Source: Acidobacteriota bacterium (GTDB lineage: Bacteria > Acidobacteriota > UBA6911 > RPQK01 > CBDFMZ01). From it: a DNA stretch of 64,000 bases. The position numbers were made by a program, and so were the translations under genes. Positions 221 to 50,547 of this stretch are shown piece after piece; position 1 is the stretch's first letter, and each line of letters starts with the position of its first letter. Below the pieces are notes generated by a model. It was not told the DNA's origin, ran no database searches, and saw only the letters and a program-made list of their open reading frames with translations. Location: contig CBDFMZ010000001.1 of NCBI GenBank assembly GCA_965249865.1, positions 128,415 to 192,414 of the forward strand, given 5' to 3'.

Positions 221-586
221 CGTTTCGTGACATGAGTACTTGTTATCTCCAATACCTTTAACCTTTGTTGAGGATCTGAAACCGAACCCATTAGTTATTA
301 AATACTGCATAAGTAACATCCTCATGTTAGAGGTTAAAAAGAGGGTGTGAGGTGCTGAGAGATTAGCGCTGAATCCGTCTGTGACGGATCCAGCTTGAGA
401 CCCTTCACCATGCCCACTAACCAACTCGTAAACTGAGATCAAGATCAGAAACAGTTAACTGACACTCTGGAATTAACCAGGGTGATTCAACTGGCCCTTC
501 CCATTGCTGAAGTTTCGCTGTAGTCACTATAAAAAACCAGAAGCTTATACTTGCGGCTTTTTCGGCGCTCACTCCGTGAAGTCAAG

Positions 587-4817: not shown

Positions 4818-4901
4818 TTATGCATAAAAAATACAATTATTCATCATAACTTCCTTCTGTCAAGCCATATTATGTATAATTATTAACTTTATTATGCATA
4901 A
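4818..4901. promoter_or_regulatory. Three TTATG(C/T)ATAA palindromic boxes (4818-4827, 4870-4879, 4892-4901) in an AT-rich region upstream of the arg operon; candidate ArgR-type operator
   Basis: The boxes are perfect or near-perfect 10-12-bp palindromes. Boxes 2 and 3 are 22 bp centre-to-centre. They lie 112-195 bp upstream of the operon's first start codon and resemble the ARG-box half-sites TGNAT....ATNCA. Confidence 0.35.
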
Positions 4902-4933
4902 TAATCACATGCTTAACTCTACACGGGAAGGAC

Positions 4934-5092
4934 TCCCTACTCGGTTTCCCATCAATATACTCACGTTTATGGTGTCACCACCCGACGGGCTGAAGAATAT
5001 GGCAGGTAGTTTATTTTGCTGTTGCCAATACGACTTCACACCGTGACATTCTTACGCAAACGTGACCATATTAATGGGAAACCGAGTAGGGA
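4934..5092. mobile_element. MITE/REP-like palindromic element, copy A (159 bp; perfect 19-bp termini tccctactcggtttcccat / atgggaaaccgagtaggga, extending to ~38-bp imperfect TIRs)
   Basis: The inverted repeat is read directly from the sequence. The inner TIR part, aatatactcacgtttatgg, recurs at loci B, C, D, F and G. It is intergenic, between rsmI and the arg-operon promoter. Confidence 0.65.
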
Positions 5093-5101
5093 TTATCCAA
5101 A

Positions 5102-9050: not shown

Positions 9051-9177
9051 GGCCGTTTCCTGTCAACAAAAACTTGATTATAGCGGGCATTTGGATAACA
9101 GTCATTCTAGTGCTCTATCCCATAAAAAAACCTGATCCTTCGCAGAGTAACTTTCAGCCGAGATCAGGACCCGTGCA

Positions 9178-9212
9178 CTCGCCACAAATGTGAGTGAATT
9201 TATAAAGCTGGG
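9178..9212 (-). repeat. Solo TIR-like copy (D) of the palindromic-element family
   Basis: The reverse complement reads cccagctttataaattcactcacatttgtggcgagtg, matching the left arm of copy B (agtacccggtttataaatacgctcacgtttgtggcgagtg). It sits in the 640-bp gltX/DUF3500 divergent intergenic region. Confidence 0.5.
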
Positions 9213-9689
9213 ATGGAGCTCCCGGAAACCGCAACGTTGAGCCGTCAAGCGGAACGAAGCGCTCATTCAAACCTGGATCAAGCAAGACTGGCCTCGCATT
9301 TAAAAAAAGTACGGTGCTTAAGTGCCTCTTTGGTGGTCCTGGACGAAAGCGGTTTGTTGATGACCCGCAGGTGCAGCGCATCTGGACGCTCCGAGGACAA
9401 ACCTCGGTCTTGTTGCAACGAGCGGCTTCCCACCAGAAAATCTTCATTCTGGCCAATACCGTTGCCTTCGAACTGGATCCACTGACTCGCACAGATCATC
9501 AGCACAACCTCCGCAGCCAACGTAACCCCTTCCTGTTCTGCTCCTTCTTGACTCACTATCCTCTTTTTGACCTCTAACATTAGAATTTTACTTATGCAGT
9601 ACTTAAATAACTTCTCTGACTTCCCGGACAAGAACAGCCAGCTTCCACTCTAAGCCTTACCATGTTACTGTCTTGTCTAGGAGGACTGC

Positions 9690-10796: not shown

Positions 10797-11456
10797 GTGA
10801 ATCCATTCAACATCATCAGCGTCATCTGCTCCATTTTGGTCTTGGCCTCGGTGCCCAACGAAACAGGTTTTATTCCCCTTTTTGACGGCAAGACTTTAAA
10901 CGGGTGGGAAAAGCACATGGGACTTCCCGCCGACAACATCGGCGGGAAATGGAAAGTGATCGACGATGCCATCACTGGAGATCAAGATCCTCCCGGGAAG
11001 GGAGGCTTCCTCATTACTGATGAGATCTACAGTGATTTCATCCTGAAGCTGGAGACCAAGATCGACTGGCCGATCGATAGTGGGATTTTCCTTCGCGTCG
11101 GTGAAGACGGCAAGAGTCACCAAGTGACACTCGACCATCGCCCGGAGGGTGATATCGGAGGAATCTATTTACCTTGGACACAAGGGTTTGTCCGGCGAAG
11201 TCCGCAAGGGATTCAGTACTGGAAAACGGGAGTGTGGAACGATGTTAAGATCCAGATCGAGGGGGAGCCCGCCCGCATTCATTTCTGGCTAAATGGCTAT
11301 TTGGTAACAGATTTCCAGCATACCGAAAAGACCACGCGAGGTGTTCCCCGCACGGGCTACATTGCCTTGCAAATCCATCCGGGTAAAGACTGGGTTCCTG
11401 GGAACAAGGCGCGATTCCGCAAGATCCGTATCAAGCCTAGGCACCCGCACCAGTGA
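10797..11456 (+). CDS. DUF1080 (3-keto-disaccharide hydrolase-like, concanavalin-type fold) secreted protein
   Basis: It has a signal peptide, then IPLFDGKTLNGWEK...KWKVIDDAITGDQ...GGFLITDEIYSDFILKLE...ALQIHPGK, the typical DUF1080 pattern. Confidence 0.7.
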   Translation: MNPFNIISVICSILVLASVPNETGFIPLFDGKTLNGWEKHMGLPADNIGGKWKVIDDAITGDQDPPGKGGFLITDEIYSDFILKLETKIDWPIDSGIFLRVGEDGKSHQVTLDHRPEGDIGGIYLPWTQGFVRRSPQGIQYWKTGVWNDVKIQIEGEPARIHFWLNGYLVTDFQHTEKTTRGVPRTGYIALQIHPGKDWVPGNKARFRKIRIKPRHPHQ

Positions 11457-13272: not shown

Positions 13273-13410
13273 TATTGCCTCTCCTTCTCCAAAAAAAATA
13301 GAAACCTCAGATACGTCCTTTACTCTTTGTAAGGTAGCAGAAGTTGGTCGGAACGAAAATAGAGTACTGTGATGTCACTTATTGTCTAGTGCTCCATTCT
13401 GGAAATAGCG

Positions 13411-13447
13411 CGGCAATTGTGGTGAGCGTATTGATAAAACTGAGTAC
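13411..13447 (-). repeat. TIR-like copy (F) of the palindromic-element family; a possible degenerate partner arm begins ~13363
   Basis: The reverse complement reads agtactcagttttatcaatacgctcaccacaattgccg, matching the B-right and B-left arms (agtacYCRGTTT...AATACGCTCAC). It is intergenic, between the GT pseudogene stop and the TonB-receptor start. Confidence 0.45.
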
Positions 13448-14670
13448 TTAGTCCAGCACCTCTGTTTTCGTGGAAGAAACCATGCGGTAACGGATCCCGC
13501 GCCACTCGATGTCTCGACTCAAAAACGAGCGAATCAGACCGTACAAGGAGAGCAACGAGGCCAGCGGTCCCCCCGCAATATAGGCCCAGTGAAAACTGTT
13601 TAAAAGTTGTTTCTGCTCTGGAAACAAAATGAGCACTGAACGAATCCGTAGCCAACCTTTAAAACAACCCAAAGCATAAACCAGGCTGACCAGAGAGGTT
13701 AGCCAAAAAAGAGTGAGACTTTCATAGAATCCCCAGCCGATTAAAATCACCGCCGTTCCTCCCCAGAGGGTGAAACTGTTCAAAAACTGTGTCCCAAAGG
13801 CCCAGTTCCAGAGCCAAGGTTGATAAACACGAGTAATTGACAGCTGACGATGAGTCCAGTTCAACAATTCCTTCAGACTACAATCCTCAAAAGTAAAACT
13901 TAGACAGTGAGGTTGAAAATGGATCGACAACGAGTGATCATGCACAGCGCAGCTGATAGCGTAATCGTCACTGACTACATTCTCCCAATAATCAGTGACC
14001 CGGCAGGCATCAAAGACTTGTCTTCTGATCGCCATGGCACCGCCCCATGCGAAATAACAATCTTTTTGCTTCATCAAAGAAACTGCGCCCGCATTCCAAA
14101 CTGAACGCAAGACTGAGGCGAAATTCCCCGCTTGCGGAAGATACCAGCGAAAACCCGTGGTGATGCCTACACTCGGGTCTTCGAGGGGACTGACCAGACG
14201 ACCCAGCCAATCCTTCCCAGGACGGATATCGGAATCGCCGAAGGCAAAAACCTGGTCCTGGACTCGGACATGAGTTAACGCATGAAGAAGGTTATGTACT
14301 TTCTGCGCTCGTTTATATGCCTTGCCGGAAAGAGAATCTTGGACTTCACACGCGAGTGATCTTTACGAACGCACTCGAGAATTGGCAGGCAAAGATCAGA
14401 GGATTCGCCAGTGACTAGCAAAAATTGGAAGTCCGGATAATCTAACTCGAAATAGGCGTTCAAATTCGACTTAAGTCCTGGATCAACACCTTTACACGGC
14501 ACAACCAAGGTCACCGACGGAGTAAAGTCCCCTGTTGGCTTCGAAAGAAAGCTTCGAAACAACCCATGGAATTCAAGTCCACCTTTGAGGGAGTACGACG
14601 CTTCGAAAAGGGAAAGTAGGCCAAAAACGGTTAGTACAAAAGGAGGAACATCGACGGCTTCCATTTCCAC
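13448..14670 (-). CDS. GT2/GT21-type glycosyltransferase (ceramide-glucosyltransferase/HpnI-like), interrupted by a single-base frameshift near 14339
   Basis: The N-terminal ORF (14275..14670) carries VTLVVPCKG...NL. After a -1 shift the frame reads ...SGKAYKRAQKVHNLLHALTHVRVQDQVFAFGDSDIRPGKDWLGRLVSPLEDP, with the KxxNL and DxD motifs. It then continues into the 13448..14110 ORF with GGAMAIRRQVFD. The shift is at an AA/AAA homopolymer. Confidence 0.7.
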
Positions 14671-14809
14671 TTCTCAGATCTCAGGTTTAGCAAGGGTGGT
14701 TTATTTGGTCAGGGACTTGAAGAAACTTGCCATACGTGCAGAGTCCATTCCAGCTAAGTACTCGATTTCTTGAAAAAGCTCATTTGACCGTATTTATTAA
14801 ACCGACGTA

Positions 14810-15220
14810 TTAAAGACTCGCCACCTCGAGTAACTGCTTCCACTGGCTTTCAGTAACCGGCATGACCGACAATCGAGGCAAGCGGACCAGCAGAAACTCG
14901 GCGAAAGTGGGGTCTGATTTTACCTCCACCAGAGAAACCGGCCGCGGAAGTCGCTCCTTGGGTTTCACATCCACCACCATAAGCCTTGGATCTTTTTGCT
15001 TCGGGTCCGGATGAGGATCGGAAATCACCTCGGCAATCCCCACCAACGCCTTCTCATTTCCAGTGTGATAGATAAAAACCTTGTCTCCCTTGCGTATATT
15101 CCGCAGATGTTTCAGGGCTAGATTATTTGTGACTCCATCCCAGACCGTTTCTTGTTCCTTTTCCAAGTCATCGTAAGAGTAAGTGGAGGGTTCGGTTTTG
15201 AGCAGCCAAAATTGAGGCAT
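14810..15220 (-). CDS. EVE (PUA-like) domain protein
   Basis: MPQFWLLKTEPSTYSYDDL...WDGVTNNLALKHLRNIRKGDKVFIYHTG is the typical EVE-domain N-terminus; 136 aa. Confidence 0.8.
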   Translation of the reverse strand: MPQFWLLKTEPSTYSYDDLEKEQETVWDGVTNNLALKHLRNIRKGDKVFIYHTGNEKALVGIAEVISDPHPDPKQKDPRLMVVDVKPKERLPRPVSLVEVKSDPTFAEFLLVRLPRLSVMPVTESQWKQLLEVASL

Positions 15221-15358
15221 GCTAGATAGATTACAAGAAAGTCCTCTTCGAGAAAAGGCTAACAGCCGATGGTAAAAGGTTTTGAATTTCGTTCCGGCGA
15301 TAAGCTCATCATTGAACCTGGAAAGTCAAACCTGAACGGGGAACCTCAAAAACAGCTC

Positions 15359-17952: not shown

Positions 17953-18024
17953 AGTGCTCGGTTTCCCCTTGATACAATGTTGTCTAATGGTGAAAGCGAA
18001 CCGATATGGGTCGGAAACGAGGAA
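17953..18024 (+). repeat. Compact degenerate copy (G) of the palindromic-element family
   Basis: The left arm gtgctcggtttccccttgatacaatgttgtctaatggtg matches the A-left arm tactcggtttcccatcaatatactcacgtttatggtg. The right arm atgggtcggaaacgagga matches the A-right arm atgggaaaccgagtaggga. It is intergenic, between divergent genes. Confidence 0.4.
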
Positions 18025-18221
18025 AGAATACTGGGGAGGTGACCCCGATGCCCTGAGACACTGTTGGTGATGCCAGTTAAAGCCCCTGGAAACTGATAGT
18101 GTAGTGACTGACGATCTACTAGCAGCTCAGTTGACGTGAAGTACTTGAACCTCATTGAAAACCCTCCAAAGGCCATCCGACGTGATAATCGATGGCAATT
18201 TTGTTAATCTAAAGGGCGATC

Positions 18222-29063: not shown

Positions 29064-29158
29064 ATTTCAGGTGCACTCAGGGTTCGGGACGAAGGCTACC
29101 CGAGTCTAGGAGTACTTACGTTTGGCCTGGTTTCCTGCTGCGACGCCTTTTCCCCTGC

Positions 29159-35088: not shown

Positions 35089-35413
35089 GGGAATCTCTTC
35101 ATCTCATCTTTTGAAAAGCGAACGTCAAAAATACAAAAAATCCAACAGGAGTGTCAAGCTGTTCACGTTGTGGGAATGCGCATCATCTGTTCGATACTCA
35201 CCTAGAGGCGAGACTGATAGGATTCATTGATGGGAAAAATCACTTGGCTATTTCACCAAAATGTTCACTTGATTTTCAGAATTTCCCTTTAGGGCCTGGT
35301 CCTTGAGTCTGATCACGAAATAAAAGCCTGGACGACTCCACTTCAGAAATCCCGCGCAATCGATAGTGGGGCTGGTAACGATATAATACGAAGAGGTAGA
35401 AAGAGAGGCTGGC

Positions 35414-44072: not shown

Positions 44073-44167
44073 CGAAACAGAGTATTATCTCCTTCATTTC
44101 TATTTCGCGATTTTGACGCGGTTGCGCTTGCCACAACAGCTACTCTATCTGATGAGATAAGATAGTA

Positions 44168-44293
44168 AGTACCCGGTTTATAAATACGCTCACGTTTGTG
44201 GCGAGTGATTACTTTGTCGTTCGTCGTAACCTATGCGACGTCTCTTCGCCACATCCTCAGCGAACGTCAGTGCATTATACGAAACTGAGTACT
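44168..44293. mobile_element. MITE/REP-like palindromic element, copy B (126 bp, termini agtac...gtact)
   Basis: The left arm is agtacccggtttataaatacgctcacgtttgtggcgag. The reverse complement of the right arm is agtactcagtttcgtataatgcactgacgttcgctgagg. It is intergenic, between divergent genes. Confidence 0.6.
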
Positions 44294-44532
44294 TAGGATC
44301 CACTCTACGGCAGCCTCCTTGCCAGCAGCCTGTGTGACAACGGACCTGGACACAACAGACCTCCTTCTCACCGAAGGTAGAAATCTGTACCTTCGGGATG
44401 ACTTTGCTGACAATTAAAGGGTAGATGATCTTGCATCGGTTCTTTCCAGAGGTTTATCATCAATCTTTGTACTCAGTTACATAACGAGCACTCAACCCAA
44501 AAGAGCTTTCGACACACGGAGGATTTAGCGCA

Positions 44533-45903: not shown

Positions 45904-46680
45904 ATGAGAGAAAACAAGGCCAAACAAAAACTACGAACAGGCGGAGTAGCCTCAGTCATTTCCGGTTCCACCATGAATGGGGATTTAATTGACTTTTTGG
46001 GACAATTAGGTTTTGACGGTGCCTGGATTGAGTGCGAGCACGGACCGGTCACGTGGGAGCACATTGGAGACCTATCTCGATCCTGTGACTTGTGGGGGAT
46101 GACCTCTTTAGTGCGAGTTCCGACCAATGAGTCCTGGGTGATTACTCGGACACTGGACCGGGGCGCTACCGGTATTGTTGTCCCTCACGTGAATACCCGA
46201 CAAGAGGCAGAGCGAGTAGCGAGATCAGCCAAGTTCGGTCCCCTTGGAAAGCGAGGGATCTATGCAGGTCGGCAGAGTTTCGGTACAGAAGATTATTATC
46301 AAAAGGCAAATGACCAGACACTCGTTGTGATCTTGATAGAGGAGGTCAAGGCCATCGAAAATCTCGCTGAGATCCTCCAAGTCCCACACATCGATGTCTT
46401 TTTTGTAGCTACTGGCGACCTGGCACAGACAATGGGTTTCACCGGTCAGATGGATCATCCTGAGGTGATGTCTGCACTGAAGGAGGCTTTCAAGCAAATC
46501 ACTGAAGCAGGAAGGATTGCGGGCGCAAATGTCTCGGAGCAAACGATTGACTGGTACCTGGAACTTGGCGCGCGTTTTTTGTTCACTCAGTGGGATCCTT
46601 GGATCGCGGCCGGAGCGAAGTCCTTCCTTGCCAAAGTGACCAGACACCCCAAATCTGTGACTGCAAAGCCCCAGGGCTAA
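45904..46680 (+). CDS. HpcH/HpaI-family aldolase (2-keto-3-deoxy-acid aldolase/citrate-lyase beta-like)
   Basis: MRENKAKQKLRTGGVASV...GFDGAWIECEHGP...VRVP...DRGATGIVVPHVNT is the typical family signature. The ATG at 45904 has a perfect AGGAGG 6 nt upstream. The listed ORF starts earlier, at 45820. Confidence 0.8.
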   Translation: MRENKAKQKLRTGGVASVISGSTMNGDLIDFLGQLGFDGAWIECEHGPVTWEHIGDLSRSCDLWGMTSLVRVPTNESWVITRTLDRGATGIVVPHVNTRQEAERVARSAKFGPLGKRGIYAGRQSFGTEDYYQKANDQTLVVILIEEVKAIENLAEILQVPHIDVFFVATGDLAQTMGFTGQMDHPEVMSALKEAFKQITEAGRIAGANVSEQTIDWYLELGARFLFTQWDPWIAAGAKSFLAKVTRHPKSVTAKPQG

Positions 46681-46735
46681 CCACCCTATTTCAGAGACTA
46701 GTTTTCCAGGTCAAGGTGGAGGCTTCTTAAAGCTA

Positions 46736-48210
46736 ATGAACACCTCACCGTCAGCTCCACTGAAGACCGAGACAACCCCGATCCCTGGTCCAGGAAAAGG
46801 GGCCCGATGGGAGACCGATCTTCTTCCAGAAGCTCCTAGGTTTACTCCGCGGAACTTCCTGCGCATGATGGGCCCCGGAGCCATTCTGTTGGCCGGTGCG
46901 ATGGGCGGAGGAGAGTGGCTGATGGGTCCCACCACGGCCGTCCAGTATGGGGTGTGTCCGTCTTCGGCTTAGTTACCGTCGCCATCATTCTCCAGATCTT
47001 TTTTAATCTGGAGGCCATCCGGTACTCACTTTACACCAGCGAGCCAATCTACGGGGGAATTATGAGACTCTCTCCGGGACCCAAGTTCTGGGGAGGAGTC
47101 TATTGTCTGTTGACAATTCTGAATCTAGGTTGGTCCGCTTTGGCCGCTTGCTGCGCCTCTACCCTCTTTAGCAGTATCTTCGGGCGTTTGCCAGGCAACG
47201 GGGACCAGGGTTGATGTACAGTCTCATGATCGCAGTCGTCCTAGTGGCCTCCGGTTTGCTGCTGTTCGGCAGTACAGTGGAACGCATGCTGGAACGGTTT
47301 CTTGGATCATAATTTTCCTCATTTTCCTTTTTCTACTCGGGGTCAATTTAATCTTCATCCCATGGTTGCAATGGCTGGCAACGTTCTCCGGTTTCTTTAA
47401 ACTGAGTGGTTTGCTGGGTGAACTGGACTGGCTGTTACTAGGAGCTCTAGCCGCCTCTTCCGGATCGGGAGGGATTTCTTGTCTGACCATCTCAAACTGG
47501 GTGCGCGACAAGGGATTTTCCATGGGAGCTCGAGTGGGAGCCATACCAGGGGCCTTCGGGAGCAAAAAGATATCGCTGTCGCACACGGGCACGGTTTTTC
47601 AGGTGACCACGAGCAATCTTGCATCCTGGCGACACTGGCTGAATTACGTTTACGCGGATCAAGAGGCACCGGATCCTTCGCTGGTATGTTCTTAAGTGTA
47701 AATCTAGCGGCAGCTGTCATCCCTGTCGGCAGCAACATAACGGGGCTGGCTGCGGGAGCCTATCAGGCGGAATACATGGCGCGCACGCTGTGGTCGGGCT
47801 TCTGGTTTTTGGCGCTCTTAAACGATTTCTGGATCCTCTTCTCTACGCACTTGGCAAATACCGATGCTTTGGTTCGCACCATCACGGATATTCTTTGGAT
47901 GCAAAAAAGTTGGAGTCAAACGTCTCGACGACCGAACGTGCGCCGTCTCTATTACCAAACCCTTCTGATTTACACCATCTGGGGTATTATTGCCATGGGC
48001 CTTGCGCCCCCACTCACACTTTTCAAGATCATGGGGAATGTGGCCGCTGCCATAATGGTCATTGGAGGCACCCATTTGCTGTTGGTGAATCGAAAGTTCC
48101 TTCCACTGCCTCTGCGTCCCGCCCCTTGGAGGCAAATGATGATCATACTGTGCATCCTTTTCTACGCTTTCCTGGCTATGAAATCACTGCTTTCCCTGTT
48201 TTCGAGCTAG
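46736..48210 (+). pseudogene. NRAMP-family transporter paralog, disrupted into at least five frame segments
   Basis: The segments 46736-46972, 46915-47214, 47214-47310, 47366-47695 and 47479-48210 are in alternating frames. Together they encode an Nramp-like protein (MMGPGAILLAGAMGGGEWLMGPTTAVQYG...) paralogous to 21990..23417. The first junction involves loss of ~3 residues, not just a 1-nt indel. Confidence 0.6.
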
Positions 48211-48350
48211 TCGAGTACTGCCATTCCGACGGCTTGGCTTCACGAAGTGAGCGCCGAGGCAAGCCCTATTACCAACAGGAACGAAGGATTGTGGGTGAAC
48301 ACCTCCGCCACCAATCCCTTTCCGCTGAATGTCATCGTCACAATTCGTGG

Positions 48351-50481: not shown

Positions 50482-50511
50482 CGTTATTCCCCCGATTCTT
50501 TTGGCCGTGTT

Positions 50512-50547
50512 AGTAACCGGTTTCATTAATATACTCACGTTTGTGGC
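50512..50547 (+). repeat. Solo TIR-like copy (C) of the palindromic-element family, ~30-65 bp upstream of the DUF481 start
   Basis: agtaaccggtttcattaatatactcacgtttgtggc matches the A-left and B-left arms (17 of 17 identical in atactcacgtttgtggc compared with B). Confidence 0.5.

Follow-up and report, generated by a model that had tools for sequence, protein, structure and literature searches.

Short intergenic elements with inverted arms and TA flanks in an uncultured acidobacterial lineage: a probable MITE family with one copy beside an IS630-type remnant

MITEs are common in bacteria. In cyanobacteria, Nezha and other MITEs derived from IS630 elements duplicate a TA target, and for Nezha the partner IS is known; some IS5/IS427-type elements, too, make duplications of 2–4 bp that contain TA. 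Among bacterial MITEs derived from IS630 the best documented is the RUP element of Streptococcus pneumoniae, which inserts at TA, often into IS transposase genes (PMC2229807), and the transposase of the IS630-family element ISY100 binds the terminal repeats via its N-terminal helix-turn-helix domain (PMC2170065). Repeats of another kind, the REPs, are recognised by a GTAG or CGTC tetranucleotide at one end (PMC3733652). Finally, a sharply defined TIRYT group is known in cultured members of the Acidobacteria, with Koribacter versatilis carrying a TIR repeat family (PMC3733652). Here we describe short repeats in a 64,000-nt stretch of DNA from an Acidobacteriota bacterium (the window, meaning the whole stretch analysed), whose gene content, with a TonB-dependent receptor, DUF481 and DUF3500, is Gram-negative and whose closest named GltX homologues belong to Acidobacteriota MAGs. 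These repeats form a genuine family. It is very likely a family of MITEs, and the best overall explanation is a lineage-restricted one, probably moved in trans by a transposase of the IS630/Tc1-mariner type.

Element A (4934–5092, unstranded) is a complete copy of 159 nt, with arms at 4934–4975 and 5051–5092. Its termini are perfect over 19 nt (TCCCTACTCGGTTTCCCAT and its reverse complement), as the sequence-only reading had described; by a repeat finder the arms are 35 nt long, 91% complementary and 89 nt apart, and in a sister strain 99.4% identical the match between them is perfect across 25 nt. The A core is unique among the sequence read. Element B (44168–44293, unstranded; 126 nt) starts with AGTACCCGG and ends with CTGAGTACT, with TA immediately outside each end (44166–44167 and 44294–44295); as proposed, it is a second complete copy. 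Against a criterion of at least 10–15 bp of inverted repeat, A has 35 nt, and for B it is the profile that both arms match. At the same site in a third strain (L042) B is 27 nt longer, at 153 nt, the shorter form having lost 27 internal nt between direct repeats of GCGACG. Interior sequence of this long form is also found in copy I, a copy of about 100 nt outside the window with TA on either side (L039 19814–19913; 7.2 kb left of the window on the sister-strain contig), so that both descend from one master element. Copy H (14757–14810, unstranded) is a probable, compact copy of 54 nt that has both tips, with TA at 14755–14756 and 14811–14812.

The other copies are fragments, namely solo arms. 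Copy C (50513–50547, plus strand) is a single left-type arm with TA at 50511–50512, copy D (9176–9215, minus strand) an arm on its own, oriented as a right end and degenerate at its tip, and copy F (13422–13448, minus strand) a truncated right-type arm with TA at 13449–13450. B and C had been called identical at 17 of 17 positions; they share 14 contiguous bases, CTCACGTTTGTGGC, or 15 of 17 positions. D is 86% complementary to the left arm of B over 36 nt. The typical arm, about 38 nt long, is tripartite: AGTAC(Y)CGGTTT at the tip, ATNAATA as an A+T-rich stretch, and CTCACGTTTGTGGCGAG as the inner box. The elements measure about 55–160 nt, within the roughly 50–800 bp of bacterial MITEs, and are non-coding, with no room for a transposase gene, in agreement with their earlier description as non-autonomous. 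B, H and I have TA on either side, and TA also adjoins the tips of C, F and the copy of a related species (see below). A, by contrast with the TA|AGTACTCGG usual in the family, has TCCCTACTCGG at both ends and lacks TA flanks: its tips read TCCCTAC where TAAGTAC is usual, and both are altered identically, a possible result of homogenisation between the arms on a hairpin template.

The arms were scored with nhmmer profiles in a leave-one-out scheme, each profile being built without the element tested. The best-arm E-values are 8e-4 for A (left arm), 6.5e-8 for B (left arm; the right arm gives 0.089), 1.5e-7 for C, 7.9e-4 for D and 7e-3 for F. Before its arms entered the profile, H gave E=0.04–0.12 for the right arm and 3–5 for the left, and E for copy I, an independent one from outside the window, is 1.6e-8. 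When the window was shuffled 50 times with its dinucleotides preserved, no score exceeded 12.1 bits and the maxima averaged 5.3, against 13–30 bits for the real arms; the comparison with shuffled controls, proposed earlier as a possible refutation, thus favours the family. Recurrence of the arm as first claimed holds for C, D and F (E≤7e-3) and fails for two further candidates. Candidate G (17953–18033, first given as 17953–18024; unstranded) has a best profile hit of E=2.2 and a fold z of –1.3, and resembles A in the tip TTAGTGCTCGGTTTCCC only, so that its family membership is unsupported; the supposed degenerate copy at 35193–35238 (unstranded) is likewise unsupported, with no nhmmer hit up to E=100 at the site. 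With these two excluded, the window holds six supported or probable loci, and the 81.9 kb surveyed hold seven loci with 10 arms, in addition to one copy in the related species.

The tips are overrepresented as well. For the nonamer TAAGTACTC, of the form TA(A/G)GT(A/G)CTC, the window has 4 occurrences where 0.84 are expected, and for the octamer TAAGTACT 5 where the expectation is 0.66. The fifth octamer (29111–29118, minus strand) lies inside a 95-nt spacer between two genes (site 29066–29118), where it adjoins a short hairpin, ACTCAGGGT...ACCCGAGT; the arm profile detects nothing there, and this tip may be the remnant of a copy. As an alternative left tip, TAGTGCTC was considered and dropped: its three occurrences in the window are not significant (15 of 100 shuffles), and the one at 13387 is ancestral flank by comparison with the related species.

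For comparison, two further strains and a related species were used. A sister strain (ENA ERZ25766727, 1.32-Mb contig ctg362009, loci L037, L039 and L046) is 99.1–99.97% identical to the window over the compared stretches, the differences being mostly transitions; in the first 12.6 kb there are 47 substitutions and one 28-nt indel. The latter consists of 28 extra nt in the sister strain, GTCACAAAGAAACTCAGGTTTTTCCTTA at 11333, which break an ORF (10797–11456, plus strand) that is open in the window; the sister strain has no gene call on that strand, and the ORF is the positional counterpart of a 3-keto-disaccharide-hydrolase-like (PF06439) gene of the related species. A third strain (ERZ23486251) is 97–98% identical, and a related species (ERZ25067264, closed 4.1-Mb contig ctg836630_43x_c, together with ERZ25071888) has the same gene order at 87–90% identity. 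Among the three close strains (97–99.6% identity) no polymorphism was seen, A, B, C and D being present in all where covered; since the elements are fixed in these strains, their activity may have ceased.

The related species supplies the insertion evidence, and the earlier proposal to look for empty sites is answered by it: A, B and the block containing D are absent from the orthologous sites of this syntenic relative. At the A site the window has 198 nt (4904–5101) and the relative 37 nt, the extra DNA amounting to about 165 nt between GGAAGG and CCA(A/G)A. The D block (9108–9613) has 506 nt in the window and 1 nt in the relative; besides D it includes the remnant of a transposase and a repeat end of a second kind. 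At the B site, gatagTA[B]TAggatcc in the window corresponds to cactcAggatcc in the relative, a species 11% diverged, with a single TCA. A (T)CA in place of TA–element–TA would fit duplication of a TA target. The TA could instead be part of the conserved tip and not a duplication, B being the sole empty site that bears on the question. Homology at C reaches to 50507, stopping 3 nt short of the TA next to the arm (50511–50512), and sequence that cannot be aligned with the relative runs on to about 50667; C is also present in the third strain.

F is an older copy with a different history. At this place an arm-like sequence, orthologous but diverged, is present in the relative, followed by 4.8 kb missing from the window, and the inner box of F is cut by the junction of this deletion of about 4.7 kb. 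The segment lost carries an ABC peptide transporter and a RAYT gene. The latter belongs to a REPtron of the relative (L041 1502–2198, at the junction near window 13385–13441), with a 125-aa RAYT-like gene (1589–1966) that has HFH and YY motifs and, on each side, a GTAG-tagged hairpin doublet of about 88 nt, GTAGGGGCGCAC...GTCTGCCCCTAC. The 43 kb examined in the relative contain one clear arm (L044 3734–3773, E=0.0017, TA|AGTACTCGAGTCCATAAGATACGCCTACGTTTGTGGCGAG) besides the F orthologue. The family therefore predates the split of the two species, and most of the window copies were gained later.

All seven loci are intergenic, as had been stated, and intergenic DNA makes up about 11% of the sister-strain locus by a hand count from gene calls. 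The stop codon of an rsmI-like methyltransferase gene is 10 nt ahead of A, which itself stands upstream of a conserved promoter-like signal, TTGACA-16-AATAAT, that belongs to the following gene. That signal, the best sigma-70-like match of the region (11/12), is in an A+T-rich stretch (4820–4910) upstream of a 363-aa gene, which also has the paired motifs ATGCATAA...TTATGCAT; this stretch is largely conserved in the related species and is therefore outside element A. C is 30 nt upstream of the likely start of the DUF481 gene (50481), a gene of 355 residues in the relative; the sister-strain call of 370 residues begins at an ATG within arm C. Two outer TAs overlap stop codons, TAA in each case: that of F in a glycosyltransferase fragment and the right one of H in an EVE-domain gene. 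This gene (14810–15220, minus strand), with H at its 3′ end, is part of a stretch of about 615 nt (14688–15302) that corresponds to 17 nt in the related species and has no inverted repeats seen at its edges. The related species (L044 7407–9809) has an intact gene for 760 aa with a faint AXE1 hit; of this gene the window keeps, next to B, roughly 40 nt at the 3′ end (44296–44334), and about 2.3 kb is deleted.

The statement that the window contains no transposase was inexact, because a frameshifted fragment of an IS630-family transposase adjoins D. This remnant (about 9216–9454, plus strand) corresponds to residues ~120–190 of roughly 300, begins at the outer tip of D and is read over three frames. 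It matches NCBIfam NF033545 at E=0.0028 (profile positions 121–187 of 299) and, in tblastn against plasmids, an Isosphaeraceae wHTH/transposase (1e-7) and ISDra3 (6e-5); its alignment with the Isosphaeraceae IS630 protein starts at 9211. Sister-strain annotation has a spurious 124-aa ORF (P0001) across it. In the host lineage the IS630-family transposase was seen as a pseudogene only, with no intact copy. The search for an autonomous partner was equally negative within its scope: a word-indexed search with the reconstructed fragment returned its own ORF alone, a 40-aa in-frame piece of the fragment used as query gave no useful match, and tblastn of the Isosphaeraceae IS630 protein found the known fragment only in the window and no more remnants in any of the loci compared. 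The sequence-only reading had also advised a search for a cognate transposase or RAYT; what came of it is this pseudogene beside D and, in the relative, a RAYT-like gene with its own, unrelated REPs.

At the right edge of the D block, which the relative lacks, is the end of a second repeat family (9560–9606, minus strand; ...GCAGTACT|TA). It is 47 nt long, TTAA(A/G)TACTGCATAAGTAA...AAAAAGAGG, and exists as two inverted copies of 89% identity, the second (298–344, plus strand) being inside a 446-nt block (178–623) that is replaced in the relative, between gatA and argB, by an 83-nt region with a long hairpin. Family 2 has only the tip octamer TAAGTACT in common with the arms described above, family 1 (p ~0.03), and the D block with its IS630 remnant ends in ...AGTACT|TA, that is, in the family-1 tip octamer. 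Family 2 was considered as the parent of family 1 and rejected, similarity beyond the 8-nt tip being no better than in shuffles. As a further observation, the right part of the 178–623 block has a 25-nt inverted repeat, TCGGCGCTCACTCCGTGAAGTCAAG, at 562–586 that recurs with 92% identity at 48233–48257, at the end of a window-specific stretch (46679–48331) of 1653 nt against 303 nt in the relative; in this stretch are a GAGTACT at 48214–48220 and an ORF of 243 aa for which no Pfam hit is recorded.

We place the family, with a slight preference, among MITEs of the IS630 type. The assignment to IS630/Tc1-mariner follows from the TA flanks, the empty site compatible with TA and the IS630-type remnant touching a copy; since no autonomous element with family-1 arms was found, we infer it indirectly. 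According to this model, a DDE transposase of the IS630/Tc1-mariner type, acting in trans, would bind the arms through its N-terminal helix-turn-helix, excise the element and paste it into a TA dinucleotide, so that the TA would be duplicated; the solo arms C, D and F would be leftovers of later deletions.

The same evidence has to be weighed for other sources of movement. MITEs moved by a DDE transposase outside IS630, for example of the IS5/IS427 type, are an unlikely alternative: an intact transposase between family-1 arms is absent from about 82 kb of this genome and about 43 kb of the relative, likeness to the IS630-associated end is confined to 8 nt, and transposase genes of the IS4/IS5 type (DDE_Tnp_1), IS256, IS481 and IS1595 are present in the loci of the relative. 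None of these genes, however, is bounded by family-1 arms, the arm nearest to DDE_Tnp_1 (L044 3734–3773) faces away from it, and the flanks are TA and not a 3–4-nt direct repeat, the left TAA and the right TTA being inverted. Much less probable is a repeat of the REP/BIME/REPIN or "TIRtron" kind, spread by a tyrosine (HUH/Y1) transposase, RAYT or TIRYT, although the arms, like REPs and REPINs, are found both singly and in inverted pairs whose spacers vary, a TIRYT group is known from Acidobacteria (PMC3733652), and in the related species the RAYT-like gene lies about 30 nt past the F-arm orthologue and a REP doublet. The earlier reading had left the choice between MITE and REP/BIME open. Its MITE side stands on the terminal inverted repeats, the multiple copies and their lack at the orthologous sites of the relative; its REP/BIME side falls with the properties of the arm. 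A REP unit is by itself an imperfect palindrome of 20–40 nt. Single arms are not palindromes (n=5, fold z from –1.2 to +1.0, against –5.6 for the REP doublet of the relative); they carry GTAC and no terminal GTAG or CGTC, only A having GTAG, in the wrong-facing form 5′-..CTAC...GTAG..-3′; and they are without the GGGGWSAS motif of TIRtron TIRs (PMC3733652). Moreover, the relative's RAYT, the only one found in the lineage, has GTAG REP doublets of its own, which bear no relation to the arms and do not occur in the window; neither the window nor its extensions contain a Y1 transposase; and TA flanks with a single TCA at the B empty site better fit cut-and-paste by a DDE enzyme.

That the repeats are no mobile DNA at all and instead a conserved cis-regulatory site or structured RNA (operator, terminator, leader) is hardly credible on this evidence. 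Each copy, it is true, precedes or follows some gene, the hairpin of A, directly after a stop codon, is very stable (–80.2 kcal/mol, z=–10.8), and the inner box of B with its T-rich run resembles a weak terminator hairpin. Yet a fold that beats shuffles is confined to A and, weakly, to B (z=–2.6), and is lacking in H, I, G and the D block; in the related species, whose gene order is the same, the copies are missing at the orthologous sites between genes; their orientation and distance to genes are variable; no promoter consensus was found in B or C; and Rfam gave no match at gathering thresholds or E≤1. Mobile DNA of the MITE kind may still act on neighbouring genes, for example through the long hairpin of A after the rsmI-like gene.

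Searches beyond the lineage agree with the earlier impression that this is not a described family. In addition to Rfam, plasmids searched with blastn in distant mode gave no match, and neither 185,579 GTDB species genomes nor JGI metagenome contigs, two collections without the source genome, contain a true match to the arm core AATAYRCTCACGTTTRTGG; its singletons (18 GTDB and 18 JGI) are all without the upstream CGGTTT...AT context and were set aside as chance. Viral contigs give a number of matches at about chance level by a rough estimate. One G+C-rich, phage-like contig (IMG/VR 3300033402_000429 and 3300033982_000023) has TAAGTACTCGGTTTCGTAAATACGCT beside TA in an intergenic spacer (L049 3807–3834, L058 4854–4881); it matches the outer 26 nt of the arm, 19 positions being forced by the search pattern, and the inner box is absent. 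Kinship of this arm-like end with the family is uncertain. The sequence family is thus one without match in Rfam, plasmids, GTDB species genomes and JGI metagenome contigs; the kind of element is ordinary.

The use of the family may lie in its being lineage-specific and apparently dense in a poorly studied, uncultured acidobacterial group. Its copies provide markers for comparing strains and species, flag gene-call errors (e.g., the DUF481 start inside arm C in the sister strain), coincide with sites of local rearrangement between sister species and document IS630-type remnants in the lineage; no long-standing question is opened by them. A bolder view, which we consider doubtful, is that the family recently expanded in a burst to several hundred copies within one uncultured genus of Acidobacteriota and is still active, the copies marking and perhaps causing the deletions and gene gains that separate sister species, and some being co-opted as RNA-level regulators. 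About one locus per 12 kb (82 kb read) would extrapolate to about 350 in a 4-Mb genome, and the link to rearrangement is drawn from the 2.3-kb gene loss beside B, the 4.7 kb lost at F and the EVE-domain block gained around H. By analogy with Correia elements in Neisseria, the hairpin of A (–80 kcal/mol, after the rsmI-like gene) might be one such co-opted regulator.

Of the described systems, Nezha can be likened by description only: it has in common with the present family a presumed IS630-family partner and TA at the insertion site, duplicated in Nezha and perhaps here, and differs in that its partner IS is known. REP/BIME/REPIN elements with RAYTs are also short intergenic repeats, single or in inverted pairs, whereas here the unit is non-palindromic, there is no GTAG tag and the RAYT of the lineage has different repeats (PMC3733652). 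Comparable, too, are the Correia/NEMIS elements of Neisseria: they are about 100–155 bp long, with TIRs of about 24 bp, terminal TA and TA duplication, occur as length variants by an internal segment (as B does, with 126 and 153 nt) and have transcripts that form long hairpins, and in neither case is the mobilising transposase identified (PMC2229807); unlike them, the present elements have an unrelated sequence, no detected IHF site or outward promoter, and a host of another phylum. RUP, a 107-bp MITE attributed to IS630-Spn1, differs in showing no sequence similarity, in its 9-bp contiguous TIR against arms here of about 38 nt, and in that its TIRs clearly match those of IS630-Spn1, while here no matching autonomous IS was found. 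It is, like the present elements, small, non-coding, intergenic and multi-copy, with TIRs and a TA site (PMC2229807), and it sits in or against IS transposase genes, as here D sits against an IS630-like pseudogene (PMC2229807).
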